A stretch of DNA of 64,000 nucleotides from an uncultured bacterium (GCA_964396845.1 CAYNGH010000003.1:2992-66991), one strand, 5' to 3'. Positions 4,254 to 57,512 are shown, numbered from the stretch's first letter. Numbers and translations are program-made. The notes: generated by a model not told the origin, from the letters alone.

Positions 4254-5402
4254 GTGTTGACTGAAGTCCAGAATATCATGATTTTTGCCGGCGAGGCCTC
4301 GGGGGATCTACAGGGGGCTCTGCTGGCCAGGGAATTAAAAAAATTCAACCCCCATATCAGGTTTTCCGGGGTGGGAGGGATCCAAATGAAAAGCCAGGGG
4401 ATCGACCTGGTTTTTGATTCCACCACCTTCGGGGTCATCGGCCCCTGGGAGGGGATCCGCAATCTGCCCCGGCTGTTACGCCTCTACAGGCAATGCCGGC
4501 AGGTTTTTCTGGACACCAAGCCGGATCTGGCAATATTCATCGACACTCCCGCCTTCTGCATGCGACTGGCTAAACTGAGTCGGGAGGAGAACATAAAAGC
4601 AGTCTATTACTTTCCTCCCTCGGCCTGGTCGGGAAGCGTGAAGCGGGCAGAAGAAGTTGCGGGCCTGGTGGATTCCGTCATCACTGCCTTTCGTTTTACC
4701 GCGGACACTTATGACCGGGGAGGCATCCCTCATTTTTATACGGGGCATCCCCTGGTGGATGTTATGCAGAAATGGAAAAATGCCAACAGGGATAAAATCT
4801 TAAAAGACCTGGGCCTTGAAGACGGCCCTTCCTATGTGGCCCTGATGCCGGGAAGCCGCACTCAGGAGATAAATCATGTGCTCCCCTTGCTGGTTGAAAC
4901 TGCCGGCAGGCTCAAAGAAGAAATCCCCGGAGTTCATTTTTTAATTCCGGTGGCATCGCCACTTCTCCGGGAGAAGATCATGTCAGGAGTCGAAAACTGC
5001 AATGCTCCGGTGAGTCTATTTGATGGCCGTGCTCAGGAGATAATGGCAGTTTGCCGGCTGGTGATTATGGCCTCGGGGAGCGCATCCCTGGAGGCTTCAA
5101 TCCTGGAGGTTCCCATGATCCTCACATACCGGCTCAACCAGTTAGACTACAAGATCATCCGGGCCTTTGTAAAGCAGAAATGGGCAGGACTGCCGAATCT
5201 TATTCTTGAGCGGGAGATTGTACCTGAACTGCTTCAGGAAAAGGCCACAGTTGAAAATATATGCCAAATAGCAAAGGATCTGATCCCTGACGGACAGAAA
5301 AGACAGAAAATGATTCATGACCTCAAGGAGTTGAATAAAGCCCTGGGTGAACCGGGAGTCACAGGCCGTGTGGCAAGGCATATATGGGAGGATGTTTTAT
5401 GA
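4254..5402 (+). CDS. lpxB: lipid-A-disaccharide synthase
   Basis: 382 aa. IFAGEASGDLQGALLARELKK N-terminal motif typical of LpxB (GT19). GTG start 5 nt after AAGGAG. Confidence 0.8.
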   Translation: MLTEVQNIMIFAGEASGDLQGALLARELKKFNPHIRFSGVGGIQMKSQGIDLVFDSTTFGVIGPWEGIRNLPRLLRLYRQCRQVFLDTKPDLAIFIDTPAFCMRLAKLSREENIKAVYYFPPSAWSGSVKRAEEVAGLVDSVITAFRFTADTYDRGGIPHFYTGHPLVDVMQKWKNANRDKILKDLGLEDGPSYVALMPGSRTQEINHVLPLLVETAGRLKEEIPGVHFLIPVASPLLREKIMSGVENCNAPVSLFDGRAQEIMAVCRLVIMASGSASLEASILEVPMILTYRLNQLDYKIIRAFVKQKWAGLPNLILEREIVPELLQEKATVENICQIAKDLIPDGQKRQKMIHDLKELNKALGEPGVTGRVARHIWEDVL

Positions 5403-6649
5403 CTTCCACTCCCTCGGATATTGTCATCGTTTCCAACAGCCCCGGGGAGTTGTCATCCTGGGTAAGGGTCACCGCGAACCGGCTCAAGGAAAAAAGCCCT
5501 GATCAGCGTATCATTCTGGCGCTGGTTCCCTGTCCCTATGCATCGGGCAGGGAAATCAACGTGGCGGAGAGCTTTGATACTGTTGATATTGTTCTTTCCC
5601 CTGCTCAATTTCTCCAGTTTATATTTCTGGGCAGGCTCCCGGCAGAATATACCCCGGCGAAACAGGGAATTGTGGTTTTCCTGGGGGGTGACTATTGGCA
5701 CGCTGCAGGGCTGGCATGGAAACTCCGATACCCTGCGGTGGCTTATACAGCCCGGCCTTATGTGGGCATGCAGAAGCATTTCCGCCATATCTTCTGTCCT
5801 TATCAGTCAGTACGGGATCAGCTGGAAAAAAAGGGAGTTGACAAAGACAAACTGATGGTGGTAGGGAACCTGATGGTGGAAGGAGTCAAGCCCACCACCA
5901 GCCGGGAGGAAGGCTTCCGACGATGGGGGCTTGACCCGGAGATTCTCACCGTGGGGATATTCCCTGGAAGCCGTCTTTATCATATGCAGGATTCATTGCC
6001 GGTTTTTCTAAAAGTTGCCGAGGAGATCCACCGGGAAATCCCGAAAGTGCAGTTTATTCTGGGCCTTTCACCTTTTCTGTCCATCCAGGAACTCACTGAC
6101 TGCCTGAGGGATCCCCAGACCCCCATCCCCGGAAGTGGCGGGCAGGTATCCAACTCCGACAGAGGATGTCAGATAACCACCGCCTGCGGTGTAAAGGTTG
6201 AAGTGTTGGAATCGGATCAGTATGACACCATGAACATGTCCGATGTGGTCCTTACAATCCCCGGCACCAATACTGCAGAGGTGGCATATCTGGGACGGCC
6301 CATGGTGGTGGCGGCTTCATGGAAAGCTCGGATACCCAGGGGAGGCCTGGGATTCTTCCTCAATTCCATACCCATGGGAGGACTCCGCCGGGCCATGATC
6401 CTGAAACTGCTGGAGAAGCAACGGTTCACATCTCTTCCCAATATGATTGCCGGTGAAGCAGTGGTGCCGGAAGTGCTGGTGGAAAACAAAGCAGAAGAAA
6501 TAACAAAAGTTGCCCTGGATCTCATCCGGGACAAAGATCGCCAACAGGCCCTCTCAGAAAGGATGCGCCGGATAATGGGTGGTTCCGGGGCTGTTGACCG
6601 GATAACCGATGCCATCATCGAAATAATAAATTCCCAGGAGGCCCAATGA
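5399..6649 (+). CDS. LpxB-related (GT-B-like) glycosyltransferase, 'lipid-A-disaccharide synthase-related protein' type
   Basis: ORF-track ORF 5384..6649. The better start is ATG 5399 (GGGAGGA 6 nt upstream), which overlaps the lpxB stop as ATGA. N-terminus IVIVSNSPGELSSWVRV parallels the LpxB N-terminal sugar-binding loop. Family assignment is from memory only. Confidence 0.5.
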   Translation: MTSTPSDIVIVSNSPGELSSWVRVTANRLKEKSPDQRIILALVPCPYASGREINVAESFDTVDIVLSPAQFLQFIFLGRLPAEYTPAKQGIVVFLGGDYWHAAGLAWKLRYPAVAYTARPYVGMQKHFRHIFCPYQSVRDQLEKKGVDKDKLMVVGNLMVEGVKPTTSREEGFRRWGLDPEILTVGIFPGSRLYHMQDSLPVFLKVAEEIHREIPKVQFILGLSPFLSIQELTDCLRDPQTPIPGSGGQVSNSDRGCQITTACGVKVEVLESDQYDTMNMSDVVLTIPGTNTAEVAYLGRPMVVAASWKARIPRGGLGFFLNSIPMGGLRRAMILKLLEKQRFTSLPNMIAGEAVVPEVLVENKAEEITKVALDLIRDKDRQQALSERMRRIMGGSGAVDRITDAIIEIINSQEAQ

Positions 6650-41995: not shown

Positions 41996-42889
41996 TCAGC
42001 CTCTGGGCCGGTGGGTTCCTGCAGGGGCTTTGTAAAACTGGTACATCCGGGAAGAGAGATGTTCCCCCAGCACCTGATCCGACAGCTGGGACGGTTTCAT
42101 ACCGATCATCATCATAGCCAGGGTGACAATTTTTCTTTTGGTATCCGGAACCGTATCAGGAGTTGAGGTTTCCATCTCATTGACAACTTCCCGGTAAAGG
42201 TCATTTATTATTTTTTTTCTGACAGCCCGGAACATATCCCCCGCCAGGGATGGAATCCTGTTGCAGGCATCAGAATAAGACAGCCACGGGTTTTCTTCCA
42301 GCAGGTGGATAAGGTTTTCCCGGTTTTTCTCTTCCACTTTGATCTGACAGAAGACACACAGGGTCTGTCCCTTTGGCACCAGCACACCACAGGCGGGACA
42401 AGGTGATGCCCCCTGTTTTTTCATCCACCGATCATATTTATACTTTTCCCGAAGAAACCCCGCCATCAGCACCCTTGCCTTTTCATCCCGGATTTCCCCG
42501 ATGATTGCCTGGATCTTCCTTTCGTCCCCCGCGGGAAGTTTCATACTCCGGGGGTCATAGACTCCTTTTGCCTTCTTGTTTTTCTTCTCCATCAGAAGCC
42601 CCGGCCTGGGAACAAAACGGATATGCCTGATGGAGTCATCTCCCAGAAGCTCCCGGAACCTTTGGATATATTTCAGCTGAAAATGGCTGAGTTCTGTAGC
42701 CCATATGGGATCCTTCACCCCCACAAACAAGGTGTCCCCTTTTATGCGGTAAGGCCTGCTGATGGCCGCCACCTGAGGCCCGCATACCTGGCTCCAAAAC
42801 TCAAGAGCACGGTAACGATCAAAGGCCGGGGACAAATCCAGCTGAGCCTTCATGCTGGTCAGGCAGTCTTTCAGGGATACTAACTGCAA
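41996..42889 (-). CDS. DUF721 (DciA-like) protein with C-terminal Zn-ribbon
   Basis: Located directly downstream of recF (10-bp overlap), as usual for DUF721. CPACGVLVPKGQTLCVFC zinc ribbon. Confidence 0.6.
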   Translation of the reverse strand: MQLVSLKDCLTSMKAQLDLSPAFDRYRALEFWSQVCGPQVAAISRPYRIKGDTLFVGVKDPIWATELSHFQLKYIQRFRELLGDDSIRHIRFVPRPGLLMEKKNKKAKGVYDPRSMKLPAGDERKIQAIIGEIRDEKARVLMAGFLREKYKYDRWMKKQGASPCPACGVLVPKGQTLCVFCQIKVEEKNRENLIHLLEENPWLSYSDACNRIPSLAGDMFRAVRKKIINDLYREVVNEMETSTPDTVPDTKRKIVTLAMMMIGMKPSQLSDQVLGEHLSSRMYQFYKAPAGTHRPRG

Positions 42890-44001
42890 GGGGTAATCCT
42901 CCCTTCGTTTACCTGAAATATTGAAATACCATCAATCCCGTCAAAGTATCGAGGTATGCAGGTTGCGGCATATATCACCTGCCGGTTTCCTGCAAGGTGA
43001 TTGAGAAAAAGCCGAACCCTGTCCGGGTCAAATTCATTGAGGCAGTCATCCATCAGGATCACTGGTTCCCTCTGGAGTTTCCGGGATAAAACCACGGCCT
43101 CGGCAAGTTTAAGGACTGCCGCCGCGGTGCGGATCTCCCCCAGAGAGGCAAATTTCTTCAGGGGGCCGTTATAGCTGATCATTTCCAGGTCATCCCGGTG
43201 AGGCCCTGCCATGGTATGTGCCCGGCGATCCTCAAGCCTTTTCAGGGAGCCGAGAGTTTTTCGAAAACTGTCCCGGACATCCTCCTGACCGGACTTTCCC
43301 GGTTTTAATGCCGTTGAACGATAGGAAACCGCCGGGGGTTCGCCCCGGAATATCTCCCGATACAGGGATTCAAACTCCTCCCGGAGTTGTTTGATTATAT
43401 CCATTCGGCTCAACATTACCCCGGCCCCCAGGAACACCAGCCGATCCAGATAAACTTCCCCCAGCCGGGGATCCCGTTTTCCCGGAGGTATTTTCAGCCA
43501 TGCATTGCGGGCCTCTAATACTTTTTTATATTCCCGCAAATCTACAACATAAGAAGGATTTACCCGGCTGCATAAAAGATCCAGAAACCGCCGGCGCAAC
43601 TGGGGATCACCCCGGACAATGTCCAGATCGTCCACTGTGAGGAGAACCATAGGGGCAAGGCCGATAAAATCCGACAACCGGGAAACCGGGGTTTTGTTGT
43701 GCCGGATTATCTTTCGCAGGACTCCTGATGAGTGATTATCCCAAATGATTTCCAGACTGAAGGATATTTCCCCTTCGGTGAATTCCCCGGCAACCCGGGA
43801 ATACCCGGCCCCCGGCGGGAGTGCGTCTTCCTCCCGGCTTGTCCTATAGGGCCGTCCCAGTCCCAGCAGGTAGAGAGCCTCGATGCAGTTGGACTTGCCC
43901 TGGGCGTTTTTTCCCACCAACAGGTTGAACCCCGAGCCTGGCTCAAGGGTTTCCTTTTGGTAATTGCGGAAATTTTCTATGGTGAGCTTATTTACAATCA
44001 T
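42880..44001 (-). CDS. recF: DNA replication and repair protein RecF
   Basis: From MIVNKLTIENFRNYQKETLEPGSGFNLLVGKNAQGKSNCIEAL (Walker A GKNAQGKSN); C-terminal signature region present; 374 aa. Confidence 0.85.
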   Translation of the reverse strand: MIVNKLTIENFRNYQKETLEPGSGFNLLVGKNAQGKSNCIEALYLLGLGRPYRTSREEDALPPGAGYSRVAGEFTEGEISFSLEIIWDNHSSGVLRKIIRHNKTPVSRLSDFIGLAPMVLLTVDDLDIVRGDPQLRRRFLDLLCSRVNPSYVVDLREYKKVLEARNAWLKIPPGKRDPRLGEVYLDRLVFLGAGVMLSRMDIIKQLREEFESLYREIFRGEPPAVSYRSTALKPGKSGQEDVRDSFRKTLGSLKRLEDRRAHTMAGPHRDDLEMISYNGPLKKFASLGEIRTAAAVLKLAEAVVLSRKLQREPVILMDDCLNEFDPDRVRLFLNHLAGNRQVIYAATCIPRYFDGIDGISIFQVNEGRITPCS

Positions 44002-44111
44002 GGTAATATTCCGTGAAGTCCCGGAATAGCGGTTTTTGTCCTGCCCCGGATAAATCCCTTCCCTTCTCTTGAAGGTATCTGACTGCGGACTGCCAATATT
44101 CAACGGGATGA

Positions 44112-46052
44112 TTGTTATTGCAGGAGAGAAATATCCATTTGAACTATTCAAAAAAATATGACTTGATAGTGGTGGGAGCAGGTCACGCCGGAGTGGAGGC
44201 GGCTCTTGCCAGTGCCAGGATGGGTGCCAGAACTCTTTGTTGTACCATAAACATGGATACAGTGGCCCTGATGCCCTGCAATCCTTCCATCGGCGGCCCC
44301 GCCAAAGGTCAGCTCTGCCGGGAAGTGGATGCCCTGGGAGGATCCATGGGAAAGGTCATCGACGAAACCCATATACATATCAGGATGCTCAACACCGGCA
44401 AAGGGCCTGCTGTTCAGGCACTGCGGGCACAGGCGGATCGCAGGGATTATCAATACCGGTTCAAGGAGATCCTGGAAGGCACCGATAACCTGGACATGAA
44501 ACAGGAAACAGTGACGGAAATACTGGTGAAGGGGAATCAAGTCGCCGGGGTGAGGACCGCCACCGGCTGGGAATACCTGAGCCGGGCCGTTGTGGTTACC
44601 ACCGGGACATTCCTCCGGGGACTTATTCATATAGGAGGATATACCTGTCCAGGAGGCCGTTCAGGAGAACTGCCGTCAATGGAGCTTTCCCGGTGTCTTG
44701 CAGGGCTGGGCTTTGATCTGGGCCGCCTGAAGACCGGCACTGTTCCCAGGGTTGACAGCCGAACCATCGATTTTTCCAAAACCACTCCCCAGTATCCGGA
44801 TCTGCTTCCCCACCGGTTTTCCTTCGATACCATACCACAGGTGAAGCCCGACCAGGTGCCATGCCACCTGACATACACCACCACAGAAACTGTCAGGATA
44901 ATAATGGCCAACATCCACCGATCCCCTCTTCACGGGGATCACCGTACCATCGAAGGAACAGGCCCCCGATACTGTCCTTCCATCGAGGATAAACTCCTGC
45001 GGTTTCCCGGCAGAGATCGGCATCAGGTCTTTCTGGAACCCGAAGGCAGACATACCCGGGAGATTTATGTTCAGGGGCTTTCCACCAGCCTTCCCATAGA
45101 TGTTCAGGAGCTTTACATCAAAACCGTGGAGGGCATGGAAAAAGCCGAGATAATGCGTCCCGGCTACGCCATTGAATATGATTACATCCCCCCCACTCAG
45201 CTTCATCCCTGGCTGGAAACACGAAGAATAAAGGGATTGTATATGGCAGGACAGATAAACGGGACATCGGGTTACGAGGAAGCAGCTTTTCAGGGGATAA
45301 TCGCCGGAATCAACGGGGTCCTGGGTCTTGATGGGAAGGATCCCCTGATTCTCAGCCGGGATCAGGCTTACGGCGGGGTGTTGATTGACGACCTGGTGAC
45401 CCTGGGAACCCGGGAGCCTTACCGGATGTTTTCATCCCGGTGCGAATACCGCCTCACCATGCGCCAGGACAATGCCGATGAGCGGTTGACTCCTATGGGA
45501 TACCGCCTGGGGCTTATCCCCGAAGAGCGCTACCGCAGGTTCACAGAAAAGATGGATCGAATCCACCGGGAGATGGAACGGTTGGAGGGAATCCGGGTAA
45601 AGGGGAATGAAGCAGAAGAACTTTCTGAGCTGTTTGAAACCCCGGTTTCGCCGGGAGTGACATATGCGGAGCTTCTGAAACGGCCCCAGGTCAAATACCG
45701 GCAATTAAACCGCCAGGATCCATCAGCGCCGGAGATTGTTGACGGGCTTGATGTCCCCGGCGAAGGATTTATCACCAGAATTGAAGCAGAACAGGTGGAG
45801 ATTCGCATCAAATACCAGGGCTATATTGCCCGGCAACAGGAACAGATCGAAAAATTCCACCAGACAGAAGAAATCCTGATACCGCCAGATATTAACTATG
45901 AAGAGATTTCCTCCCTGCGGTGCGAGTCCCGGGAGAAACTGCAGAAGATCAAACCCCGATCCATCGGACAGGCCTCCCGCATATCAGGCATAACACCCTC
46001 GGATGTATCCATCATTCTGATGTTTCTGAAAAAAACAAGGGTATTGTTATAA
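44112..46052 (+). CDS. mnmG: tRNA uridine-5-carboxymethylaminomethyl modification enzyme MnmG (GidA)
   Basis: YDLIVVGAGHAGVEAALASARMGARTLCCTINMDTVALMPCNPSIGGPAKGQLCREVDALGG is near-invariant GidA N-terminal sequence; 646 aa. Confidence 0.9.
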   Translation: MLLQERNIHLNYSKKYDLIVVGAGHAGVEAALASARMGARTLCCTINMDTVALMPCNPSIGGPAKGQLCREVDALGGSMGKVIDETHIHIRMLNTGKGPAVQALRAQADRRDYQYRFKEILEGTDNLDMKQETVTEILVKGNQVAGVRTATGWEYLSRAVVVTTGTFLRGLIHIGGYTCPGGRSGELPSMELSRCLAGLGFDLGRLKTGTVPRVDSRTIDFSKTTPQYPDLLPHRFSFDTIPQVKPDQVPCHLTYTTTETVRIIMANIHRSPLHGDHRTIEGTGPRYCPSIEDKLLRFPGRDRHQVFLEPEGRHTREIYVQGLSTSLPIDVQELYIKTVEGMEKAEIMRPGYAIEYDYIPPTQLHPWLETRRIKGLYMAGQINGTSGYEEAAFQGIIAGINGVLGLDGKDPLILSRDQAYGGVLIDDLVTLGTREPYRMFSSRCEYRLTMRQDNADERLTPMGYRLGLIPEERYRRFTEKMDRIHREMERLEGIRVKGNEAEELSELFETPVSPGVTYAELLKRPQVKYRQLNRQDPSAPEIVDGLDVPGEGFITRIEAEQVEIRIKYQGYIARQQEQIEKFHQTEEILIPPDINYEEISSLRCESREKLQKIKPRSIGQASRISGITPSDVSIILMFLKKTRVLL

Positions 46053-46079
46053 CAGCTGATGCCGGAGATTTAACAGGCG

Positions 46080-46850
46080 TTACCGGGTAAGGCTTCCCGG
46101 CACCGGCTCATATTTATCCACCGATACGATCTCCCGGCGGGCTGTTCTGCCGCCACCGGAAAAAACCCGGCTCACCCTGACCTTGTATCCATCTGTCCCC
46201 CTGGAGGAAATCCCCATGGGATCTCCATCATCGGCAGGAACATCGGGATACCGTGGAGCTGGATAGACTTTAAGGGTTTCCACCTCCACGGATATTTTTT
46301 CTTCCAATTCCCTGGGGGATATGAACCGGACAAACAGACGCCGGTTCTGAATTTCACAAACAATTTTCACTGGAAGATCGTGAGGATTCTTAAATTTCAG
46401 ATCGATTTCGCCGGTCTTTTCCAGATATATGGCCGCATCCAACCCCGGCCCCACCGAATCTATCTTCCAGAGATGAGGAGTCCTTTCGATGATATCCATG
46501 CCCGAAAGAAGAGCAGCATTGTAAAGGGTGGATGACAGCTGGCAAAGCCCCCCGCCGGGAGTGTCCACCATTCTCCCCATGAATATGGTGGGAGCACCGC
46601 GGTAACCCCAGCTCCTGAGCCTTTCCCCGACAATCTCATTGAAGGAGAAGACCTCTCCCGGCTTCAGGATAGTGCCGTCAATCTTTGCCGTGGCAATGTA
46701 AAGGTTGTCAATCTGGGATTGAGCCCTGCCCTCCAGGGAAGTGGTAAAGCCGGCAATTTCAAACTCCCGGGTCATATTGACAGTGGCCCACAGAAACAGC
46801 CCCAGAAGAACCAGGACCACAATGAACAGGGCAATCCGCCTGCCGGTCAT
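46080..46850 (-). CDS. VanW-family protein
   Basis: N-terminal TM anchor, GGGLCQLSSTLYNAALLSG motif typical of VanW. Confidence 0.75.
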   Translation of the reverse strand: MTGRRIALFIVVLVLLGLFLWATVNMTREFEIAGFTTSLEGRAQSQIDNLYIATAKIDGTILKPGEVFSFNEIVGERLRSWGYRGAPTIFMGRMVDTPGGGLCQLSSTLYNAALLSGMDIIERTPHLWKIDSVGPGLDAAIYLEKTGEIDLKFKNPHDLPVKIVCEIQNRRLFVRFISPRELEEKISVEVETLKVYPAPRYPDVPADDGDPMGISSRGTDGYKVRVSRVFSGGGRTARREIVSVDKYEPVPGSLTR

Positions 46851-47548: not shown

Positions 47549-49453
47549 TCACTTGGCGCTGTCGCCAATGGGAATCCACATGATATATTTTACCCAGTCA
47601 GGGGCCAACTCCATTATTCTTTCACCGCCAAACATGAAAACAAATATGTCCCGCAAAAGATACCTGGCATCCTGGGGGTTCTTAGCCTTGTCGATATAAT
47701 CAAACAACCTGTACTGAACAACAAGATACTCGCCCCTTCTTTCCTTCACCAGCCCCAGAGGAGTTGCCACCAGATTGGTTTCCGGATCAGACATGACCAC
47801 GATGGGCTCTATGCTCATTTCCTTTTCCCGAACCTTCACCAGCAGAGATCGGATACCGAAGTCCGACAGCCTCCCCTCAAACTGCTGTGGGGTGAACTCC
47901 CGGAATATGTGGTGCCATTGCCGGGGAAGCCTGAAGTTCATCATATGCCGGGCGGGTTCGTATTCCTTGTAAACCGGGGTAAAGGGCATGGACATATTGC
48001 TCTGGGAGTCATGTTCAAAAAATATCACCCGGCCTCCTTCGGCTACATAGGATCGAATCAAATAATTAAAATTGCGGATTGTTTCCGCAGCCCCCGGAGC
48101 AACCACCAGCAACCTGGGCAGAGATCTCCTCCCCTGCTGAAGATTTTCAATCTCCCTGGTCAGTATTTCCTGGCTGAAAGGGATAAAGTCAATCCCTAAT
48201 TCAGATAAAACCCCGGAAATTTTTTTCCCGGCCCGTCTTCCCTCTGCTAAAATTACTGTGGTATTAAAACTGGGCCGTAGTTTCTGGAAAAGAACTATTC
48301 GAATGCCGAAGTAGCCCATCAGAAGATAAACCAGAGTCAGGATTACAGCAAGACGTGCCCTGGCGGGATCCGCCACATCAGGAACAAGATCCTGGGGGGT
48401 TTTCCCCGGAACATAGGAATCACCCTTGAAACCGGTAATCTCATCGATGGGGATATTATATCGGATATTAAACAAATCCCCCTGTATCACTGGTTTGCGG
48501 TCAATCTCAATGTGAAAGCTCTTAAATATCCATCCCCCGTCTTCAAAATGCTCAAAATTGTCATATTCCGCCCGGGCATAAAGTTTGCCCATGGGATCCA
48601 GCAGGTCTATCCGCCGGATGTAACGATTGTCGTCGTTGGACACATAAAGCTTGAAATGCCCATAATCATTGCTTTTAACATCCACGATGACTATCTGATG
48701 ATCCCCCATCATGAACCGTCCCAGAAATTCTGTCTTCCACTGGGGATCCCTGACCTTGATGTAAAAGGGAAAGACAAGATGCATGGGGTTGTCCCGGTTG
48801 AAAACAACATTGTTGTCACTGTCCACTGATTCCGCTCTGGTGTATGCGGTAATAACTCGACGGCTCTCCATCTCTTCTTCGGGGATGGGAATCTTTTTAA
48901 TGGGAATGGTCTGGCGAACCCCTAAAGATGGCCTGGGTCTTTGCCGGGGAGTCGGCTGTTCGTCTTTCTTAAGAGAAGGAACCAGCTCCACAAAATCGTT
49001 CTTTAACCTGAGCAGGTAACCATCCTGGCTGAAGAAATTAAAAAAATAGCCTCCTTCCGGGCTGGCAAAAAGCAGGATGTTAAAAACCCTGGGATGCCGG
49101 TGAAAATTGATTATCCCCACAGGCCGGGTAAACCGGATATCTTCATGGGGGGGCAGTATCCCCCTCATCAGGAAAGGATGCTTCCGCACCGTCAACAGGT
49201 CTGCTTCCATGCTCTGGATATTGTCATTGGCCTGGAAAATCTCCTGAATGATTGTATCGGGATCCTTCTCATAATCCTCATCATCAGCCAGTGCCGGAGA
49301 AACGGAAAAAAGAAAGAAGGCCAGCAGGCATATAAACACCAGAAAGCAGAAAGTCTGGAAACCCCGGGGCTTCAGTGTTGTTGATTGTCCTCTCCACAAA
49401 GGCAAAATAAAGAACACCTTTCTTCTTGCAGCTACATAAAAGCAACCCGGCAA
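47549..49453 (-). CDS. single-pass (bitopic) membrane protein, paralogue 2 of tandem pair (periplasmic N-domain / TM / cytoplasmic domain)
   Basis: 634 aa; shares with the upstream gene the blocks VILAEGRRAGKKISGVLSELGIDFIPF, GGRVIFFEH, MPFTPVY, GEYLVVQYRL. Confidence 0.55.
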   Translation of the reverse strand: MPGCFYVAARRKVFFILPLWRGQSTTLKPRGFQTFCFLVFICLLAFFLFSVSPALADDEDYEKDPDTIIQEIFQANDNIQSMEADLLTVRKHPFLMRGILPPHEDIRFTRPVGIINFHRHPRVFNILLFASPEGGYFFNFFSQDGYLLRLKNDFVELVPSLKKDEQPTPRQRPRPSLGVRQTIPIKKIPIPEEEMESRRVITAYTRAESVDSDNNVVFNRDNPMHLVFPFYIKVRDPQWKTEFLGRFMMGDHQIVIVDVKSNDYGHFKLYVSNDDNRYIRRIDLLDPMGKLYARAEYDNFEHFEDGGWIFKSFHIEIDRKPVIQGDLFNIRYNIPIDEITGFKGDSYVPGKTPQDLVPDVADPARARLAVILTLVYLLMGYFGIRIVLFQKLRPSFNTTVILAEGRRAGKKISGVLSELGIDFIPFSQEILTREIENLQQGRRSLPRLLVVAPGAAETIRNFNYLIRSYVAEGGRVIFFEHDSQSNMSMPFTPVYKEYEPARHMMNFRLPRQWHHIFREFTPQQFEGRLSDFGIRSLLVKVREKEMSIEPIVVMSDPETNLVATPLGLVKERRGEYLVVQYRLFDYIDKAKNPQDARYLLRDIFVFMFGGERIMELAPDWVKYIMWIPIGDSAK

Positions 49454-49465
49454 TTAATGCCCGGG

Positions 49466-51349
49466 TCACTTCTCCTGCTCTTCTTCATCTTCCCCGGCAT
49501 CATTTTGTTTTACAGGCTGTTTTACTCCCATCATATCCATAAGCCAGGTGGGAGCGAACAACAGATTCTTTTCTTTGCCGAATATATATTCCAGCAGATC
49601 TCTTAGCATCTTTTCCGCAGTGGCCGAGGTGAACTTCAGCTTTACAATTGCCTCCAACAGACGATACTGGATGATCATATACTCACCCTTGCCCTCCCGG
49701 ACCATGCAGATAGAAGCCGCCGTCAGATTGGTTCTCTCGTTTACCACCACCAGGATGGGATCGATTTCCAGGTTCTCTTCATGGATCTTGGCAATAAGTT
49801 CATAGGGAAGGAAAGCAGTGGTCCTCTTCTGGATCTCCTCTGCGGATGTGAGCTTCCATATCTTTTCCCAGTTGGGCATAATCACATAAGTATTGTCGGG
49901 ATCTGACCGGTCAAGGGGAACAAAGGTGGGAGTGAAAGGCATATCCTGAGCCTGCTCAACCCCATGGTCAAAGAATACCACCCGGCCACCGTCCCGGACA
50001 TAGGTCTTGAGCAGGAAGTTATATCCCTTGGACTGAGAAGACATACCCGGCGCTACAAATACAACCCTGGGTCTTTTCTTCTTTTTGAAGTCCAGCAGTT
50101 CCCTCTCCTGGGTCAGTTTCTGGGGAGTGAAGGGAGTGAAATGAATTCCCAGCTTTTCAAACACCGGGGAAATCTTCTCTTCGGCTCGGTTCCCCTCCAC
50201 AAGGATAACCTCCCGGCTGAAGGCGGGACGTTCTGCCTTGTAGAACCAGTAACGGTAACCGATGATGACCAGAACCACCAGAAGGAACAGAACCAGGAAA
50301 ATCAGCCCCACTGTCAGGAAGGGGCCTCCCCGCCATATCTGATCATTCTTGTCAACCTTGGGAGCTTCAGTAGTCTGAGGTCTTTCCCTGGGTTCATCCT
50401 GGTTGCTCAACAGGGTTTTATCATTCAGAGTCGCCCGCAACACAGGAAGCCCGTGCATGTATATATCACATACAGTATAAAGTCGGCCCCCCTTGATGAA
50501 AGAATAAAAATTCCTGTAGGTGGCTCTGGCATAGACCAGGTCATCCCGATCCAGCCTTTCCACCTGGATTACATCCCGGTTCTCATCGGCGGTTATAAAA
50601 ATCCGGGACTTGCCGTAAGTGGGGCTGTCAATCTCAACCACATAGCATTCCATGTTCATCAGGGTCCGCTTCCCCATATAACGCATTTCCTGGGTCGCCT
50701 CAAAAGGCTTGAAGGCATAAGGAAAAAGCAGGTTCAGGGGGTTTTCTCTGTTGGAAACCAGGCTTCCGTCAGGATTATGATCAAAGAGAGTCAGGTTGTA
50801 TATGTTTTCATATTCAACCCCTTCACTGTCTTTTGGAATATGCACCCCTATCTCTTCAAAGCCCGGATTAAGGCGGAACTGGTAGCCATCAGTGCTGGTA
50901 AAAGTATAGAAATATCTCCCCCGGCCCCGGTCATACATTTGAAGCTGATATCTCTTGGGTGCCCGGACATAATGGATGTATGACTTGGCGTTAAGATAAC
51001 CTACTTCATCGAAGTGAGGCAGGACATTTCTCATGAAATCCGGGTTCAACCTGTCGATGGTAAGCTCCGACTCATAGCTGACAAAGCGGGCCTTCACATC
51101 CCATATCTCCTTGATCAGCTTGCCGGCATCAATCTCTTCTTCTTCGTCGGAATCCTCGGCTTCTTCAGTAACAACCGGTGTGGCATCCGCTTCAGGTTCA
51201 TCACCGGGGGGGCCGGATCCACACGATATGGCACAGGTCAACAGAAAAACCAACAGCAACAAAACCACCGGCACAAGTAATACCAGGCGGCATCTTCTCT
51301 CCCTGTCGGGGCTGCTGCTTCCCCTGTTGCAAAATATAGTCTGTATCAT
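49466..51349 (-). CDS. single-pass (bitopic) membrane protein, paralogue 1 of tandem pair
   Basis: 627 aa; signal/lipoprotein-like N-terminus, acidic linker, ~250-aa periplasmic domain, TM (FLTVGLIFLVLFLLVVLVIIGY), cytoplasmic domain with VILVEGNRAEEKISPVFEKLGIHFTPF, GGRVVFFDHG, MPFTPTF, GEYMIIQYRL. Confidence 0.55.
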   Translation of the reverse strand: MIQTIFCNRGSSSPDRERRCRLVLLVPVVLLLLVFLLTCAISCGSGPPGDEPEADATPVVTEEAEDSDEEEEIDAGKLIKEIWDVKARFVSYESELTIDRLNPDFMRNVLPHFDEVGYLNAKSYIHYVRAPKRYQLQMYDRGRGRYFYTFTSTDGYQFRLNPGFEEIGVHIPKDSEGVEYENIYNLTLFDHNPDGSLVSNRENPLNLLFPYAFKPFEATQEMRYMGKRTLMNMECYVVEIDSPTYGKSRIFITADENRDVIQVERLDRDDLVYARATYRNFYSFIKGGRLYTVCDIYMHGLPVLRATLNDKTLLSNQDEPRERPQTTEAPKVDKNDQIWRGGPFLTVGLIFLVLFLLVVLVIIGYRYWFYKAERPAFSREVILVEGNRAEEKISPVFEKLGIHFTPFTPQKLTQERELLDFKKKKRPRVVFVAPGMSSQSKGYNFLLKTYVRDGGRVVFFDHGVEQAQDMPFTPTFVPLDRSDPDNTYVIMPNWEKIWKLTSAEEIQKRTTAFLPYELIAKIHEENLEIDPILVVVNERTNLTAASICMVREGKGEYMIIQYRLLEAIVKLKFTSATAEKMLRDLLEYIFGKEKNLLFAPTWLMDMMGVKQPVKQNDAGEDEEEQEK

Positions 51350-51490
51350 AAATTATGGCTTGATAATTTATATTTTTATTTACATCCGTTGCCTGTTTCA
51401 CCTCAACATTTCGAAAAAACTCCCCCATGTCCTCTTTGTGCCCGGAAGAATGACCACAAGACGCCAGTTTTTCTTATGCTCCCATACATT

Positions 51491-51776
51491 GGTGTTCGGT
51501 TAAGCAATATAAGCTTGTAGCTGTGCCGTCTGGATGGGGTTTCTCCCGCTGTCTTTCTCCTGCTTCAGGGAGGTTTGCTCCATGTCGCCTCACAGATTCC
51601 TTTCCCTCCGGGATACGCCGTCCCTGGCGCGCCCGGAGCATCGGACATCGTGTCCGATGAAGGAATCCTGTGGACTCCCTGTCGCACTCCCTGGGCAGGA
51701 GAATAATGCGTTTCAAAACCCCAACCCTGACTGTCTGGACATTGATGGAGCAATGATTGCAATCTTAACCGAACAC
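51491..51776 (+). mobile_element. MITE-like non-autonomous element (~286 bp) with perfect 13-bp terminal inverted repeats GTGTTCGGTTAAG / CTTAACCGAACAC
   Basis: Left end ggTGTTCGGTTAAGc at 51491-51505, right end CTTAACCGAACAC at 51764-51776. Internal hairpins include ATCGGACA-tcg-TGTCCGAT and CACAGATTCCTT/AAGGAATCCTGTG. A ~90%-identical inverted copy lies at 57130-57358. Confidence 0.55.
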
Positions 51777-51926
51777 GGATGTGCCCCCATATTGTGTTTT
51801 GTTGCCAACAGGAGTAATTTGTATTACAATATCATGGAATATTTTAAAGAAAATTCAGTATTTTCCTGTGGGTGGGATGACTCACCCCAGTGAATGCAAT
51901 ACCCGGGCAGACCCTGATTTGAGAGG

Positions 51927-53771
51927 ATGATTCTTATGAAACGAGCCAGGTGCCTTCTGGGCATATTGATATTAGTCCTGGTGATTCTTTATCTGTCAGG
52001 AAAACCCGGCCCCGACAATAAAATTACCCCGGTCCCTGACAGCAACACCATTATCAACGATTTGTCCAGGAGTGATCAATCCCTGTGGGCAAAAGGTGAA
52101 TTTGTGGTGGACTTCAAGGATCAGACCACCTGGGATGAAATCAGGAAGCTGGAAGAAGCCCTTGGGGTGAATATGGAATATGTCAGCCCCCATTCTAAAA
52201 AAGCCCGAATTATGAGAGGATATGCCGGGGATAATATTTCTGAAGTTCTGGCCCGCTTAAAATCTGACCCCAGGGTAGAATATGCCGAGCCGGATTATTA
52301 CTACCATATCTTTGACTCGGACAAAATGGCAAATCCCAACGATCCATTTTATAAATACCAGTGGAACTTTGAAAAGATCAATGTCCGGGATGCCTGGAAC
52401 ATCAGCCGGGGCGACGGGGTAACCGTTGCGGTGATTGATACCGGGGTGGCATTTCGGGATCACGGCCGGTTCCACCGCCTGGAGGACCTGGAAAACACAA
52501 GGTTTGTAAAGGGATACGACTTCATCCACAACAACAACCTGCCCCTGGATGATCATGGCCACGGAAGTCATGTGGCCGGCACAATTGCTCAGTCCACCAA
52601 CAACGGCAAGGGTGTCGCCGGGATAGCCTACAATGCCCGGATAATGCCCCTGAAGGTGCTCTCCGCCAACGGCTACGGGCGCACTTCGGACATTGCCGAT
52701 GCGGTTCGATATGCTGCAGATAACGGTGCTCAGGTGATAAACATGAGCCTCGGGGGATCCTTCCCCAGCCTTGTGTTAAAATCTGCCTGTGACTATGCCT
52801 GGAAAAAGGGAGTGGTGATAGTCTGCGCCGCGGGCAACTCCAGCACATCCCGCCCCAGCTATCCCGCAGCTTTTTCCTCGTGTTTGTCGGTTTCCGCCAC
52901 CCGCTATGATGACAAGTTAGCGCCTTATTCAAACCGAGGGCCTTTCATCGACATCGCCGCACCGGGTGGAGATACCACAGTGGATCAGAACAACGACGGC
53001 AAGCCCGACGGTATAATGCAGAACACCATAATGATAGGAAACCCGGAAAAAGAAGGATATTATATCTTCCAGGGCACTTCCATGGCTTCTCCCCACGTGG
53101 CGGGAATTGCAGCAATGCTGATTTCCGCGGGAGTCGGGAACAACCGGGAAGTGGTTTCCATCCTCAAAAAAACCGCCCGCCGGGACGGGCTTCCCTTAAA
53201 AGAAGGATACGGAGCGGGGATTGTCGATGCCCGGAAAGCCCTGATTCATGCCACAGTAAACCGGGGCTGGATGAAACTGGGGGTGGCGATTATTGTGGTG
53301 GTAGTATTGATTCTTCTGCTGGGAAGCACATCCGCCAATAAAATTATCTACTCCCCCTTGTTCTATATTTCATGGCTTTTTGGATCCACGGGTCTTTTCT
53401 TCCTGCCGGCCATAATTGCAAAGCCCTTCCCCGGAATGGAGCTGTTAACCAGAGGATTTACCCGCTGGGATTTCCTGATTTCAGGGCCTGGCCCTCACAA
53501 CCCCCTGTTTTTAAGCATTCTGGCCCCGGTGATCCTTTCAGTGCTACTGTATAAAACCCCCTGGCAGAACCTGGCGGCAGGATTCACCACTGGTGTGGCG
53601 GGTGCTATTCTGTGGGCACTGCTGTTCTCCAGAGCTGATGTGGCGTGGATTCCCGGCACCCTGATTCTGGATAAACTGTGGCTGATTATTAATTTTGCCG
53701 GGGGTTTGTTTCTGGCATATCTGGTAATCACACCGGGAGAGAAAAAACAATGCCCAGGGGAGGCTGAATAA
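51927..53771 (+). CDS. subtilisin-family (S8) serine peptidase fused to a C-terminal polytopic membrane domain
   Basis: Signal anchor, I9-like propeptide, catalytic motifs VAVIDTGV (Asp), HGHGSHVAGTIA (His), GTSMASPHVAG (Ser). Residues ~445-614 form 5-6 TM helices. Confidence 0.8.
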   Translation: MILMKRARCLLGILILVLVILYLSGKPGPDNKITPVPDSNTIINDLSRSDQSLWAKGEFVVDFKDQTTWDEIRKLEEALGVNMEYVSPHSKKARIMRGYAGDNISEVLARLKSDPRVEYAEPDYYYHIFDSDKMANPNDPFYKYQWNFEKINVRDAWNISRGDGVTVAVIDTGVAFRDHGRFHRLEDLENTRFVKGYDFIHNNNLPLDDHGHGSHVAGTIAQSTNNGKGVAGIAYNARIMPLKVLSANGYGRTSDIADAVRYAADNGAQVINMSLGGSFPSLVLKSACDYAWKKGVVIVCAAGNSSTSRPSYPAAFSSCLSVSATRYDDKLAPYSNRGPFIDIAAPGGDTTVDQNNDGKPDGIMQNTIMIGNPEKEGYYIFQGTSMASPHVAGIAAMLISAGVGNNREVVSILKKTARRDGLPLKEGYGAGIVDARKALIHATVNRGWMKLGVAIIVVVVLILLLGSTSANKIIYSPLFYISWLFGSTGLFFLPAIIAKPFPGMELLTRGFTRWDFLISGPGPHNPLFLSILAPVILSVLLYKTPWQNLAAGFTTGVAGAILWALLFSRADVAWIPGTLILDKLWLIINFAGGLFLAYLVITPGEKKQCPGEAE

Positions 53772-53989
53772 TGTTCGAAAAATCATTGAAGGGAACCGTG
53801 AAAAAACGCGAGGTTGAAGGCGGAGTCTGGGTGTTGGAAACCGAGGACAAGAAAATATACCAGCTCAAGGACGGCCCGGCGGATCTTTATCAGGACGGGG
53901 TGAAGGTTACCCTTGAAGGAAAGGTTCGAAAAGACCTGATGGGTTTCGGTATGTCCGGCCCCATTTTTGAAGTTAAAAAAGTCCGCTGA
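53771..53989 (+). CDS. small DUF5818-like beta-barrel protein
   Basis: 72 aa; pattern VEGGVWVLETEDKKIYQL..G....L..DGVKVTLEGKVRKD......G.IFEV as I recall for DUF5818. Start overlaps the S8 gene stop (translational coupling). Confidence 0.45.
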   Translation: MFEKSLKGTVKKREVEGGVWVLETEDKKIYQLKDGPADLYQDGVKVTLEGKVRKDLMGFGMSGPIFEVKKVR

Positions 53990-54056
53990 TTTTTTAGCCG
54001 GTGAACCGGCATTGCCGGGCTTTTGTTCAGCTTCCGGCGTAAGCTGACATGAGCCG

Positions 54057-55058
54057 TCAGCCTTTTGCCCCGTTTTGCAACAGCAGTTCTGCTATCTTTT
54101 CATGCCTTTCGTTAACTGCCAGCTGATAAGGAGTCTGGCCGATAAGATCCCTGGCGTTGACTTTGGCCCCTTTTTTTACAAGCATCCGGGCAATCTCCAG
54201 ATCGCCTTCCTTGGCAGCATAATGAAGAGGAGTGCGATCCACCTTGTCCCGGGTATTCACCTTTGCCCCCCGAATCATCAGCAAACGGGCAACCCCGGTT
54301 TCACCGTTGGCCGCGGCACAGTGAAGAGGAGTGCGATCCACCTTGTTCCGGGCGTTCATATCCGCATCCAGGGCCAGGAGTATCGCTGCCACTTCCTTTC
54401 CGCTGGCCATGTGCAGAGGAGTATCCCCGTTGTTGTCCCGGGCGTTCACATCGGCACCGCAGGAAATCAGCATATCTGCAGCCTCGGGGTTTCCCATCAT
54501 GGATGCCCGGTGCAAGGGATTGCATCCATCCCGATCCCTGACATTGCAGTCGGCTCCCTTATCGATGAGTTTGGCGATAACCCGGGTCAGCCCCATCAGC
54601 GCGGCAATATGCATAAGAGTACTGCCACTGTCATCAAGATCATTAATATTAAAACCCCTGGTTAAGAGATACAGGGCCACTTCCTCATGGCCTGTTCTCA
54701 AAGCCCAGCGAAGAGGAGTGTTGCCGAATTTATCCCGGCGATCAAGATTGGCCCGCTTTTCCACCAGCATCCTTGCCACCTCGGGACTGGTGGCCACATG
54801 AAGAGGCGTACGTCCGTCGGTGTCGGTGGCATCCACATCGGCACCGCCCCACAGCAAGGCTTCAGTTATGGCAGGAAATCCCGCCACCGAGGCAAGATGC
54901 AGGGGGCTATATCCCTGGGAGTCCCTCAGGTTCACCAGGCTTTCGTTTTTTAACAACAGGGTTTTTATGCGGTCAGGATTACCTCCGGTTACAATCTCTT
55001 CCCTCAGCTCCTGACTGTCGCTCCTGTTGAACATACCAAACATCAGCACACCCCCCAT
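54057..55058 (-). CDS. ankyrin-repeat protein (~9 ANK repeats)
   Basis: Repeated G-x-TPLH-x-A-x-x-G 33-aa units (GYSPLHLASVAG, GRTPLHVATS, GNTPLRWALRTGH, GSTLMHIAALMG, GCNPLHRASMMG, GDTPLHMASG, RTPLHCAAANGE, RTPLHYAAKEGD, GQTPYQLAV). Confidence 0.8.
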   Translation of the reverse strand: MGGVLMFGMFNRSDSQELREEIVTGGNPDRIKTLLLKNESLVNLRDSQGYSPLHLASVAGFPAITEALLWGGADVDATDTDGRTPLHVATSPEVARMLVEKRANLDRRDKFGNTPLRWALRTGHEEVALYLLTRGFNINDLDDSGSTLMHIAALMGLTRVIAKLIDKGADCNVRDRDGCNPLHRASMMGNPEAADMLISCGADVNARDNNGDTPLHMASGKEVAAILLALDADMNARNKVDRTPLHCAAANGETGVARLLMIRGAKVNTRDKVDRTPLHYAAKEGDLEIARMLVKKGAKVNARDLIGQTPYQLAVNERHEKIAELLLQNGAKG

Positions 55059-55089
55059 TTACCTTACTGCACAACTGCAATGCCTGCCA

Positions 55090-55773
55090 TCACATATCCA
55101 TCATCTTTCTGATGGTTGAAGGAACCTCGTCCCGGAGGGACTGATCCCCTGACAGAGCATCGCTGATATGTTTCCTGCCCATATCTTCCTTGCCTGACTC
55201 CACCAGGGATATCCCCAGAAACAGCCTGGCCCGGTTGTCGCCGGGGTCAAGCCTGAGAGCCTCTTCAAAGCATTTTTTTGCTTCCTCGAAACGATATAGC
55301 TTCACCAGGGCATAGCCTTTGTATTTATATGCCCGGATATAATCCGAATCTTTTTTGATGGCGGTGTCAAAACTCTTGATGGAATCATCATGCTGACCGG
55401 CCCGCCCCTGAGCATAACCCAGATTGAACCATATGTCCGGGGAATCAGGCAACGCTGCCAGGGCCTTGCGATAAGTCCCCAGGGCATAATTGAACTTGCC
55501 TGTATCAAGATATACATTGGATATCATAACCCAGGCATCGATGTTGGTCTTGTCGATTTCCACCGCCTTCTGAAGCAGGGGCATCCCGCTGTTGATGTCC
55601 CCTTTTTCCAGCAAGGCCGCTCCCCTCTGGACAAGATCCCTGGAACGGGTTGCAGGATCCGTGGTTTCCGGCTGGGCCTGACAGAAGCCATGAGTTGCAG
55701 TTAATGCCAGAAAGACCGTCAATATGGCAATTACCCTGATTGATGTGTTACAGATTATACTAAAATCTTTCAA
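55090..55773 (-). CDS. TPR-repeat secreted/lipoprotein
   Basis: Signal peptide VIAILTVFLALTATHGFC, then 4-5 TPR units. Confidence 0.65.
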   Translation of the reverse strand: MKDFSIICNTSIRVIAILTVFLALTATHGFCQAQPETTDPATRSRDLVQRGAALLEKGDINSGMPLLQKAVEIDKTNIDAWVMISNVYLDTGKFNYALGTYRKALAALPDSPDIWFNLGYAQGRAGQHDDSIKSFDTAIKKDSDYIRAYKYKGYALVKLYRFEEAKKCFEEALRLDPGDNRARLFLGISLVESGKEDMGRKHISDALSGDQSLRDEVPSTIRKMMDM

Positions 55774-55791
55774 TTCAAATACCTCCGGTGG

Positions 55792-56997
55792 TTATATTCT
55801 GGTAGATTCCGACCGAGCGCCGATAACTCTGCCGGGACATCCTTCCATCACACAGCCCGGCGCAACATTGCGATCCACCGATGTGCCCGGCGCAACAATC
55901 ACATTATCGCCAATCTCGATATTAGGGGATACAGCTCCGCCAATACCGATGAGAACCCCACGGCCAATTCTTACCATCCCTCCCAGGTGAGATCCCGGCG
56001 CCATGTGGGAAAACTCCCCCAGCCGGCAATCATGGCTGATGGAACAGTTCTGGGTGATAAAAGTCCCCCGGCTTATGGTACTGCGGATTGACACCAACGA
56101 ATGAGCCTCCACCACACAACCATCTTCAATAAGGGCATTTTTGGATATACAAGCCCTGGGATGAATAGCGGATATGGGCTTCAGCCCTGCATCGACAGCC
56201 CTTTGAAAAAGCTGTGCCCTCAGATGAGGCTCCCCCACCGATACAATAAAATTATTCACTCCCCGGCGGGCAATTTCTGCCAGCATATTAGTCCTGCCCA
56301 ACACCGGCAGACCGTCAATCTTTTTTCCGTCAAGGGCAGGATTATCATCCAGGTAACCTTCAATCTCCAGCTTTTCAATTTTTTCCAGAATCTCCCGGAT
56401 AACCCCGGAATACTGTCCGGCGCCGATTATGACGCACTTGCGGGGCCTGCTGGAAAAGAGAATATAGGTTTCCACATCTTCATGGGTGATGGTGTCCCCC
56501 CGGGAAGGCTTGATGTCCGCCAGGTTTATTCCCGCCTGACGCGCTCTCCGCCGTGCCCTGGGTGATGCCTTGATCCCGGGAGCTTCTGAAGAGTGCATAG
56601 GGGCATGCATCATCCGTTGAATCTCCATGGTGGCGGGGCCTGGCTCTCCCTGATCATCGGCGGCAACCGGCTCCTCCAGTTCTTTTGATTCAACTTCAGG
56701 GATTTTCTGTGCATCCTTTCGCCGGGCTATCTCGTCCAACAGCCCCCGGATATTTTCATCTTTCCCCCCGATAATCCCCACCGCCTCTGCAATGGGAACC
56801 CTGGCACCCTCTCCGGCAATGATTTTCTTGAGTATTCCCCGGTTTTCTGCTTCCACCTCGACGGAAGCCTTATCGGTTACCATCTCGAAAAGGGGATCCC
56901 CGATATCCACCGGCTGACCTTCACCCACAAACCAGTGGACAATCCTGCCCTGGGTCATGTTGGCACCAAGTTTTGGAAGGAAAATTTCATATGCCAT
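55792..56997 (-). CDS. fusion protein: lipoyl domain + E3-binding (PSBD) domain + NeuD/PglD-type left-handed beta-helix sugar N/O-acetyltransferase
   Basis: From MAYEIFLPKLGANMTQGRIVHWFVGEGQPVDIGDPLFEMVTDKASVEVE (lipoyl-lysine TDKA context). Then ASPRARRRARQAGINLADIKPSRGDTITHEDV (peripheral subunit-binding domain). Then KCVIIGAGQYSGVIREIL...LDDN (NeuD N-terminal Rossmann-like part). Then repeated hexapeptides (IGRGVLIGIGGAVSPNIEIGDNVIVAPGTSV). RBS GGAGA 7 nt upstream. Confidence 0.7.
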   Translation of the reverse strand: MAYEIFLPKLGANMTQGRIVHWFVGEGQPVDIGDPLFEMVTDKASVEVEAENRGILKKIIAGEGARVPIAEAVGIIGGKDENIRGLLDEIARRKDAQKIPEVESKELEEPVAADDQGEPGPATMEIQRMMHAPMHSSEAPGIKASPRARRRARQAGINLADIKPSRGDTITHEDVETYILFSSRPRKCVIIGAGQYSGVIREILEKIEKLEIEGYLDDNPALDGKKIDGLPVLGRTNMLAEIARRGVNNFIVSVGEPHLRAQLFQRAVDAGLKPISAIHPRACISKNALIEDGCVVEAHSLVSIRSTISRGTFITQNCSISHDCRLGEFSHMAPGSHLGGMVRIGRGVLIGIGGAVSPNIEIGDNVIVAPGTSVDRNVAPGCVMEGCPGRVIGARSESTRI

Positions 56998-57129
56998 GGC
57001 GTTTCTCCAGAATAATATAGATACCAGATAAATTTTTGATTGATGACAGTTTTCCTTTACAACAGGAGAAATATCGTAAATACAATCCAAAACAAGACTT
57101 ACGCATTTTTTATTTTCGGGGGAACCTTG

Positions 57130-57358
57130 CAGTCAGGGCTGGGGTTTCGAAAGGCATTATTCTCCTGCCCAGGGGGTGGGACAGGAAGTTCACAGGATTC
57201 CTTCATCGGACACGATGTCCGATACTCCGGGAGCGCCAGGTACGGCGTATTCCGGAGGGAAAGGAATCTGTGAGGCGACATGGAGCAAACCGCCCCAAAG
57301 CAGGAAAGACACCATCCAGACGGCACAGCTACTGAGTTATATTACTTAACCGAACACC
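57130..57358 (-). mobile_element. partial inverted copy of the MITE-like element (outer TIR intact, inner end truncated)
   Basis: Reverse complement of 57130-57358 aligns at ~90% identity to 51491-51733 with one ~14-nt indel; retains CTTAACCGAACACC at 57345-57358; lacks the second TIR. Confidence 0.55.
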
Positions 57359-57512
57359 AGTTTAATAAGCTTAAAGTGGATGTCTATGGGTTTTCCAGTG
57401 CATCGTATCAACAGAATAACATTTCATCACATTTATAAGGGGATCCGTTTTTTAATGGTGCTTATGACACCTACAAAAGAGTATAGAGGCCAGACATATC
57501 TGTCAGAAACAT

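Follow-up and report, generated by a model that had tools for sequence, protein, structure and literature searches.

The 64-kb stretch of DNA analysed here (hereafter the window, in whose numbering all positions are given) comes from an uncultured bacterium (GCA_964396845.1, CAYNGH010000003.1:2992-66991) and is bacterial by its gene content, with LpxB, MnmG, EF-G, DciA and an anaerobic ribonucleotide reductase present. Between a 627-aa gene and the divergent gene of an S8 protease lies an intergenic repeat (copy A), and an inverted, shorter version of it (copy B) lies five genes further on, upstream of a lipoyl/PglD-like gene. A preliminary description had offered several readings of this pair: a transposable element of the miniature inverted-repeat type (MITE), the two ends of a composite-transposon-like cassette of 5.9 kb, or a promoter, leader or cis-regulatory RNA shared by two genes. 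We find that the repeat is very probably a non-autonomous MITE from the IS4 family, ISH8 subgroup, represented in the window by one intact and one decayed copy.

The repeat proved real and its sequence as described. A repeat search recovered two pairs of inverted arms, 51551-51733/57130-57312 (183 nt, 91%) and 51485-51550/57299-57364 (66 nt, 83%), with a 14-nt indel between the pairs, and blastn of the unit against the window aligned copies A and B at 86.5% identity over 244 nt (E=2e-82), with no third copy in the 64 kb. We also confirmed the internal hairpins and the perfect 13-bp inverted repeats reported earlier for copy A (51492-51504 and 51764-51776). These 13-bp repeats form the core of longer terminal inverted repeats (TIRs) of 18 bp, complementary at 16 of 18 positions, the left one starting with 5'-CAT; the element between and including them measures 295 bp, well within the size expected of a MITE (below about 600 bp). 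It is bounded on both sides by a 10-bp direct repeat, missed earlier, whose copies (TGCTCCCATA and TGCCCCCATA) agree at 9 of 10 positions and which we read as a target-site duplication (TSD). When up to three mismatches were allowed, the TIR 18-mer occurred three times in the window against 0.04 expected, the third occurrence being the outer end of copy B. The open reading frames (ORFs) of the element are all short, and searches with two of its frames found no homologs. The window contains no transposase by tblastn with the haloarchaeal IS4-type protein described below or by Pfam scans of large ORFs, in agreement with the earlier failure to recognise one between the copies. By its sequence, copy A is complete and could in principle still be mobilised.

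A further copy provided an independent view of the boundaries. Scanning of metagenomes with a 19-mer from the core of the element gave five matches, four of which share the seed only (19-23 nt); the one real copy lies on a contig of 1412 bp (L005; Ga0334890_1056381). There, L005:989-1285 matches 51485-51781 of the window at 94% identity over exactly the length of the element, and the flanks on the contig match nothing in the window. This copy reads CATTGG...CGGATG and carries a perfect 10-bp repeat, GCAAATCCTA, on each side (10/10), in the same register as the TSD of copy A. Its insertion point (L005:1286-1295) falls exactly at the stop codon of an opposite-strand gene, with the TAG inside the duplicated target. 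The boundaries and TSDs of L005 and copy A therefore define a discrete 295-bp element that has entered unrelated DNA on no fewer than two occasions and produced a 10-bp duplication on each; with copy B the repeat is found in three contexts. The TSDs of copy A and L005 share a terminal TA.

Copy B, which is inverted with respect to copy A, has suffered a 14-nt internal deletion. Its similarity to copy A ends at about 57129, so the right TIR has gone together with the rest of the final ~50 bp. The earlier observation that it keeps the outer TIR and lacks the inner one was thus borne out, with the qualification that its outer terminus reads AAC rather than CAT. As far as its sequence tells, copy B is a dead remnant that is no longer able to move. 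Several variants are common to L005 and copy B against copy A, which has private changes of its own; hence the copies descend independently from a master element that was closer to L005. We infer that copy B goes back to a separate and earlier insertion, upstream of the lipoyl/PglD-like gene, of an element of the same family, and that it is by coincidence that the two copies stand inverted on either side of five genes. Coordinates of these and associated features are collected in Table 1.

Table 1. Coordinates of the two copies of the element, their parts and associated features in the window.
Feature	Positions	Strand	Remarks
MITE copy A	51487-51781	+	Bounded by 18-bp TIRs and 10-bp TSD; complete; no transposase
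Left TIR, copy A	51487-51504	+	CATTGGTGTTCGGTTAAG
Right TIR, copy A	51764-51781	-	CATCCGTGTTCGGTTAAG on - strand, CTTAACCGAACACGGATG on + strand
Left TSD copy	51477-51486	.	TGCTCCCATA
Right TSD copy	51782-51791	.	TGCCCCCATA
Most conserved core	51572-51676 (105 nt)	+	Predicted three-way junction
Core stems (predicted)	within 51572-51676	+	Outer stem CACAGATTCCTT/AAGGAATCCTGTG; hairpins CTCCGGG..CCCGGAG and ATCGGACA-tcg-TGTCCGAT
MITE copy B	57362 to ~57129	-	Inverted relative to copy A; decayed, truncated
Left TIR, copy B	57345-57362	-	AACTGGTGTTCGGTTAAG; terminus mutated, CAT to AAC
Sigma-70-like site	51802-51830	+	TTGCCA-17-TACAAT; 10/12 consensus positions, consensus match only; not part of element
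Genes in supposed cassette	between copies		S8 protease, 72-aa gene, ankyrin, TPR, lipoyl/PglD-like

The family assignment comes from the ends of the element. A scan of one genome per species (596 Gb) placed the exact left 18-mer, CATTGGTGTTCGGTTAAG, at 74 loci, compared to ~17 calculated for a random 18-mer in a dataset of this size. The hosts of these loci include haloarchaea, Methanosarcinales/ANME, Thermoplasmata, Desulfotomaculia, Ectothiorhodospiraceae (Gammaproteobacteria), a metagenome-assembled genome (MAG) of Polyangiaceae and Oscillochloris (Chloroflexota). The bases that follow TTAAG at these loci group into recurrent subterminal sequence families, and the matches are therefore genuine element ends. 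A matching right end was found 127-3453 bp away at 27 of the 74 loci; 18 of these 27 paired-end elements have perfect 10-bp TSDs, and four more have TSDs identical at 8-9 of 10 positions.

Among these elements, five haloarchaeal insertion sequences (ISs) of 1395 bp (L010, L029, L033, L038, L043) have the exact end pair of the window element, with the right end CTTAACCGAACACGGATG. Coding capacity was looked at in one of the five (L010:483-1877). It encodes a protein of 432 aa with a DDE_Tnp_1 domain (PF01609, 3e-25), a match to the IS4 family transposase model NF033592 at 1.4e-84 (284 bits, cut-off 115), and the YREK motif Y-x2-R-x3-E-x6-K in the form YGLRWEVELLFRELK; it is 53% identical to the RefSeq "IS4-like element ISH8A/ISH8B family transposase." ISH8B itself (1403 bp; L102:139-1541) has the ends CATCCGTCTTTAGTTAGG and CATTCGTCTTTAGTTAAG, the latter agreeing with the window TIR at 14 of 18 positions. 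In loci of Desulfotomaculaceae, Desulfoscipio, Desulfofundulus, Methanosarcinales and Thermoplasmata, the same 18-mer precedes related transposases, with 31-37% identity to the haloarchaeal protein. The ISH8 subgroup has been characterized by ends of the form CAT-----------T-----, 10-bp direct repeats and a length of 1400-1800 bp (De Palmenaer et al., 2008; PMC2266710, Table 1). The window element shows both of the DNA features, since CATTGGTGTTCGGTTAAG has C1, A2, T3 and T15 and the direct repeats are 10 bp long. MITEs of the ISH8 type have been described before: Halobacterium salinarum has ISH2 and MITEHsal6 (PMC7002104).

The scan also revealed a number of related elements in other hosts. 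The exact end CATTGGTGTTCGGTTAAG is kept across Archaea and Bacteria although the transposases that go with it are only ~31-37% identical, a strikingly strong conservation of the ends. A multi-copy MITE family of 189-190 bp with these TIRs and mostly perfect 10-bp TSDs occurs in MAGs of Methanosarcinaceae/Ca. Methanovorans (L020, L022, L031, L035, L037, L056, L058, L062, L066). Haloarchaeal MITEs of 133, 171 and 497 bp were seen as well, together with one of 345 bp in Desulfovirgula (L008). A plasmid of Natrinema gelatinilyticum (L039; NZ_CP100758.1) carries a 3453-bp element with the same TIR pair and a perfect 10-bp TSD, which could be an IS with passenger DNA or a nested insertion.

Taken together, the observed boundaries, TIRs, TSDs, copy in an unrelated context, IS4/ISH8-type ends and absence from orthologous loci (see below) present the element as ordinary selfish DNA, neither a cassette transposon nor a regulatory RNA. 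A DDE transposase encoded elsewhere would recognise the 18-bp ends (5'-CATTGGTGTTCGGTTAAG) and mobilise the element in trans, excising it and inserting it at a staggered 10-bp cut whose repair would leave the 10-bp direct repeat. The cut-and-paste chemistry would be that generally known for the IS4 family.

Several points weigh against this assignment. Independent copies of this particular MITE number only three (A, B and L005), as a fourth sequence, L098, is the copy A locus from another sample and adds no copy. The exact 21-mer from the core is absent from 185,579 species genomes, which leaves a high host copy number unsupported. Among viral contigs a 21-mer had 0 matches (a 15-mer had 18 loci), and blastn of the unit against PLSDB plasmids gave no match. 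For the host lineage, where the 64-kb window could be searched, no autonomous partner turned up. In copy B the right end is missing, so no TSD can be read there. The relatives that share the locus are too distant for a base-level alignment of the empty site (tried with L099 and L101), and the comparison is that the element is absent from the orthologous spacer. Finally, the center of the element is better conserved than its arms, which is not what simple neutral decay would predict for a MITE.

This last pattern deserves closer attention. Copies A and L005 differ at 1 of 105 positions in the core and at 14 of 125 in the arms (Fisher p=0.002), and copies A and B at 5 of 105 and 18 of 111, respectively (p=0.0075), which makes the core 3-10 times better conserved between copies than the arms. 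The difference may reflect a requirement of transposition, a function at the level of the host or homogenisation templated by the hairpins, among which three copies cannot discriminate. It is improbable, in our judgment, that the predicted core structure would represent functional cargo spread by the MITE family, whether a structured RNA or a protein-binding DNA module, rather than neutral filler. A separate reading, equally improbable, would see in the element a trace of cross-mobilisation within an Eremiobacterota-like lineage of bacteria by a transposase of the ISH8 type.

A rival proposal is that the repeat is a shared cis-regulatory module (a structured 5' leader RNA, a riboswitch or a promoter cassette) that was duplicated before two genes. 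Both window copies do lie 5' of a gene and in the same orientation relative to it, folding stability is very high (z -7.3 and -3.5), the predicted central junction is the best conserved part, and a weak promoter-like site (9/12) at 57386-57359 would read through copy B. The arrangement noted earlier, however, holds for the window only: in both window copies it is the right end of the element that faces the next gene start, while in L005 it is the left end, and the right end there abuts the stop codon of a convergent gene, so neither position nor orientation is conserved. The stability of the fold also fails to single out an RNA. The full copy A unit folds far better than shuffled sequences on both strands (z = -7.3 on the + strand and -8.8 on the - strand), as a DNA palindrome would.

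The Rfam scan that had been suggested gave no credible family: nothing reached the gathering threshold anywhere in the window, and nothing credible appeared at E<=10 on 51300-52000, where the best sub-threshold match (E=0.29) was on the opposite strand and scored 24 bits against a gathering score of 43. Likewise, a comparison of the copies for covariation found compensatory changes in 0 of 93 predicted pairs, with little power given three sequences. Upstream of the S8 protease gene, which starts at ATG 51927 or 51936 (the deposited 611-aa model uses the second ATG, compared to a 614-aa ORF), the best sigma-70-like site lies downstream of the element (Table 1); copy A is therefore probably not part of the S8 transcript. 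TIRs and TSDs, moreover, fit transposition and not a leader. On the strength of the missing Rfam match, the missing covariation, the opposite orientation in L005 and the position of the S8 promoter-like site, we rejected the leader or riboswitch, and with it the earlier suggestion of a shared promoter or cis-regulatory RNA, as very unlikely.

We also considered whether the two inverted copies move 51487-57362 (5.9 kb) as a unit by means of their two outer TIRs. The geometry would be fitting, as the copies are inverted with their left TIRs outermost, and there are precedents in the IS4 family, in which IS10 and IS50 form composite transposons. Nevertheless, copy A has its own 10-bp TSD directly around its 295 bp and therefore inserted alone. 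The 10 bp beyond the outer ends of the supposed unit (TGCTCCCATA and TAATAAGCTT) show no duplication, and copy B is truncated, with its outer terminus changed as described above.

Further evidence against a cassette comes from the nearest relatives of the S8 protease (L099/L100; L103/L104, an NCBI Eremiobacteraeota MAG; and L105), which share 56-63% amino acid identity with it. In all of them the order of a ~630-aa gene (-), the S8 gene (+) and a ~70-aa gene (+) is kept, and neither the element nor any TIR-like 18-mer (<=3 mismatches) is found. The spacer before the S8 gene measures 313 bp in L099, 226 bp in L103 and 610 bp in L105, the last without element or TIR-like sequence like the others, compared to 587 bp in the window. 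In the element-free L099, L103 and L105 the ~630-aa gene, which lies outside the supposed cassette, thus adjoins the S8 gene, which lies inside it; the cassette boundary at copy A therefore cuts through a gene pair of ancestral origin and is not the natural boundary of a unit. In the comparison of syntenic genomes that had been suggested, the absence of the element agrees with an insertion of copy A, and the S8 gene staying beside the ~630-aa gene speaks against an insertion of the cassette. With copy A carrying its own TSD, copy B damaged at its end, the outer flanks unmatched and the gene pair ancestral, we rejected the composite transposon, which we regard as highly unlikely.

Two further explanations have next to nothing in their favor. 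Coding of a small protein was suggested by a frame containing MGFLPLSF..., which is open in copy A (a 119-aa ORF at 51534-51893), in L005 and in most of copy B. In this frame, however, ~14 nucleotide differences between copy A and L005 produce ~10 amino acid changes, the 14-nt deletion puts copy B out of frame, and gene calling on the independent assembly L098 placed no gene at this position. When the three versions of the longest shared frame were combined into a profile, it had no match among 5.8 billion proteins, and an antisense 80-aa ORF had none among 1.84 billion representatives. We rejected protein coding, the chance of which appears negligible, on the grounds that amino acid changes track substitutions, the frame is shifted in copy B and homologs are lacking, in line with the view already taken in the preliminary description. 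A plain inverted duplication of intergenic DNA without mobility, for which speak just two copies in 64 kb at ~87% identity, was rejected as hardly credible, being contradicted by the 94% identical L005 copy with its precise ends and perfect TSD in an unrelated context, and by the many genomes in which IS4/ISH8 elements have identical ends.

The surroundings of the MITE hold several features of separate interest. Among named relatives, the S8 protease is closest to those from MAGs of Eremiobacterota/Vulcanimicrobiota. Two adjacent large ORFs of 634 and 627 aa (47549-49453 and 49466-51349, both -) have no Pfam match, and wherever relatives show this gene order, homologs of the 627-aa gene stand beside the S8 protease gene. 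The gene at 55792-56997 (-) is an unusual fusion, in which N-terminal lipoyl/biotinyl and E3-binding domains, as in the E2 component of 2-oxoacid dehydrogenases, are followed by PglD_N and a hexapeptide (NeuD/PglD-like) acetyltransferase, which here takes the place of the usual E2 catalytic domain. An ankyrin-repeat protein with seven repeats, uncommon in bacteria, is encoded at 54057-55058 (-), and its repeats are visible as direct repeats in the DNA. Farther away, two adjacent, overlapping ORFs (4254-5402 and 5384-6649, both +) match the LpxB family, the first over its full length (4e-82) and the second weakly and in part.

Gene order is not the same as in L099, the closest relative. The RecF-like and DciA genes, downstream of the S8 gene in L099, are upstream and inverted in the window (41996-46052), and the ankyrin gene (53989-55058 region) has also been relocated and inverted. 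The breakpoints, at ~46052-46080 and 53989-54057, are not at the MITE copies. The two inverted copies are a potential substrate for recombination, which would invert the intervening 5.4 kb.

For annotation, these results mean that 51487-51781 and 57129-57362 should be treated as transposon DNA and not as genes, leaders or riboswitches, and that no mobile cassette is formed by the five intervening genes. The known range of ISH8-type MITEs gains a bacterial host. In addition, one exact 18-bp terminus is common to IS4/ISH8 elements and many MITE families in Archaea and Bacteria, and provides a handy search handle for annotation. The current understanding of transposition is unchanged.

Among known systems, ISH2 of Halobacterium salinarum resembles the window element in being non-autonomous, with ISH8-type TIRs and no transposase gene, and in belonging to a subgroup that makes ~10-bp duplications. 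As described, it differs in its archaeal host, its length (~520 bp) and its multiple copies (11 in strain R1), while the window element resides in a bacterium. The unnamed MITEs of 127-590 bp with the same TIRs (e.g., those of 189 bp in the Methanosarcinaceae/ANME MAGs L022, L031, L037, L056, L058 and L066, and that of 345 bp in L008) share the 18-bp termini and perfect 10-bp TSDs, but have unrelated interiors and different hosts; no internal similarity of the window element to any of the 74 same-TIR loci was detectable. MIC231 and other IS231-derived cassettes of the Bacillus cereus group are likewise non-autonomous derivatives of the IS4 family with 5'-CAT ends and 10-12-bp duplications, IS231 being the sister subgroup of ISH8 (cf. 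PMC2266710). Their TIR consensus, however, is CAT-------AA--TAA---, and such cassettes usually carry passenger genes, of which the window element has none. With the ISs of the ISH8 subgroup (ISH8A/B, ISHma1 and L010:483-1877) the likeness is in the ends: the end pair is identical to that of the L010-type IS and matches ISH8B at 14 of 18 positions, and 5'-CAT, T15 and the 10-bp TSD are shared. These ISs are autonomous, whereas the window element, at 295 bp and without a transposase, is a derivative or a hitch-hiker of theirs.

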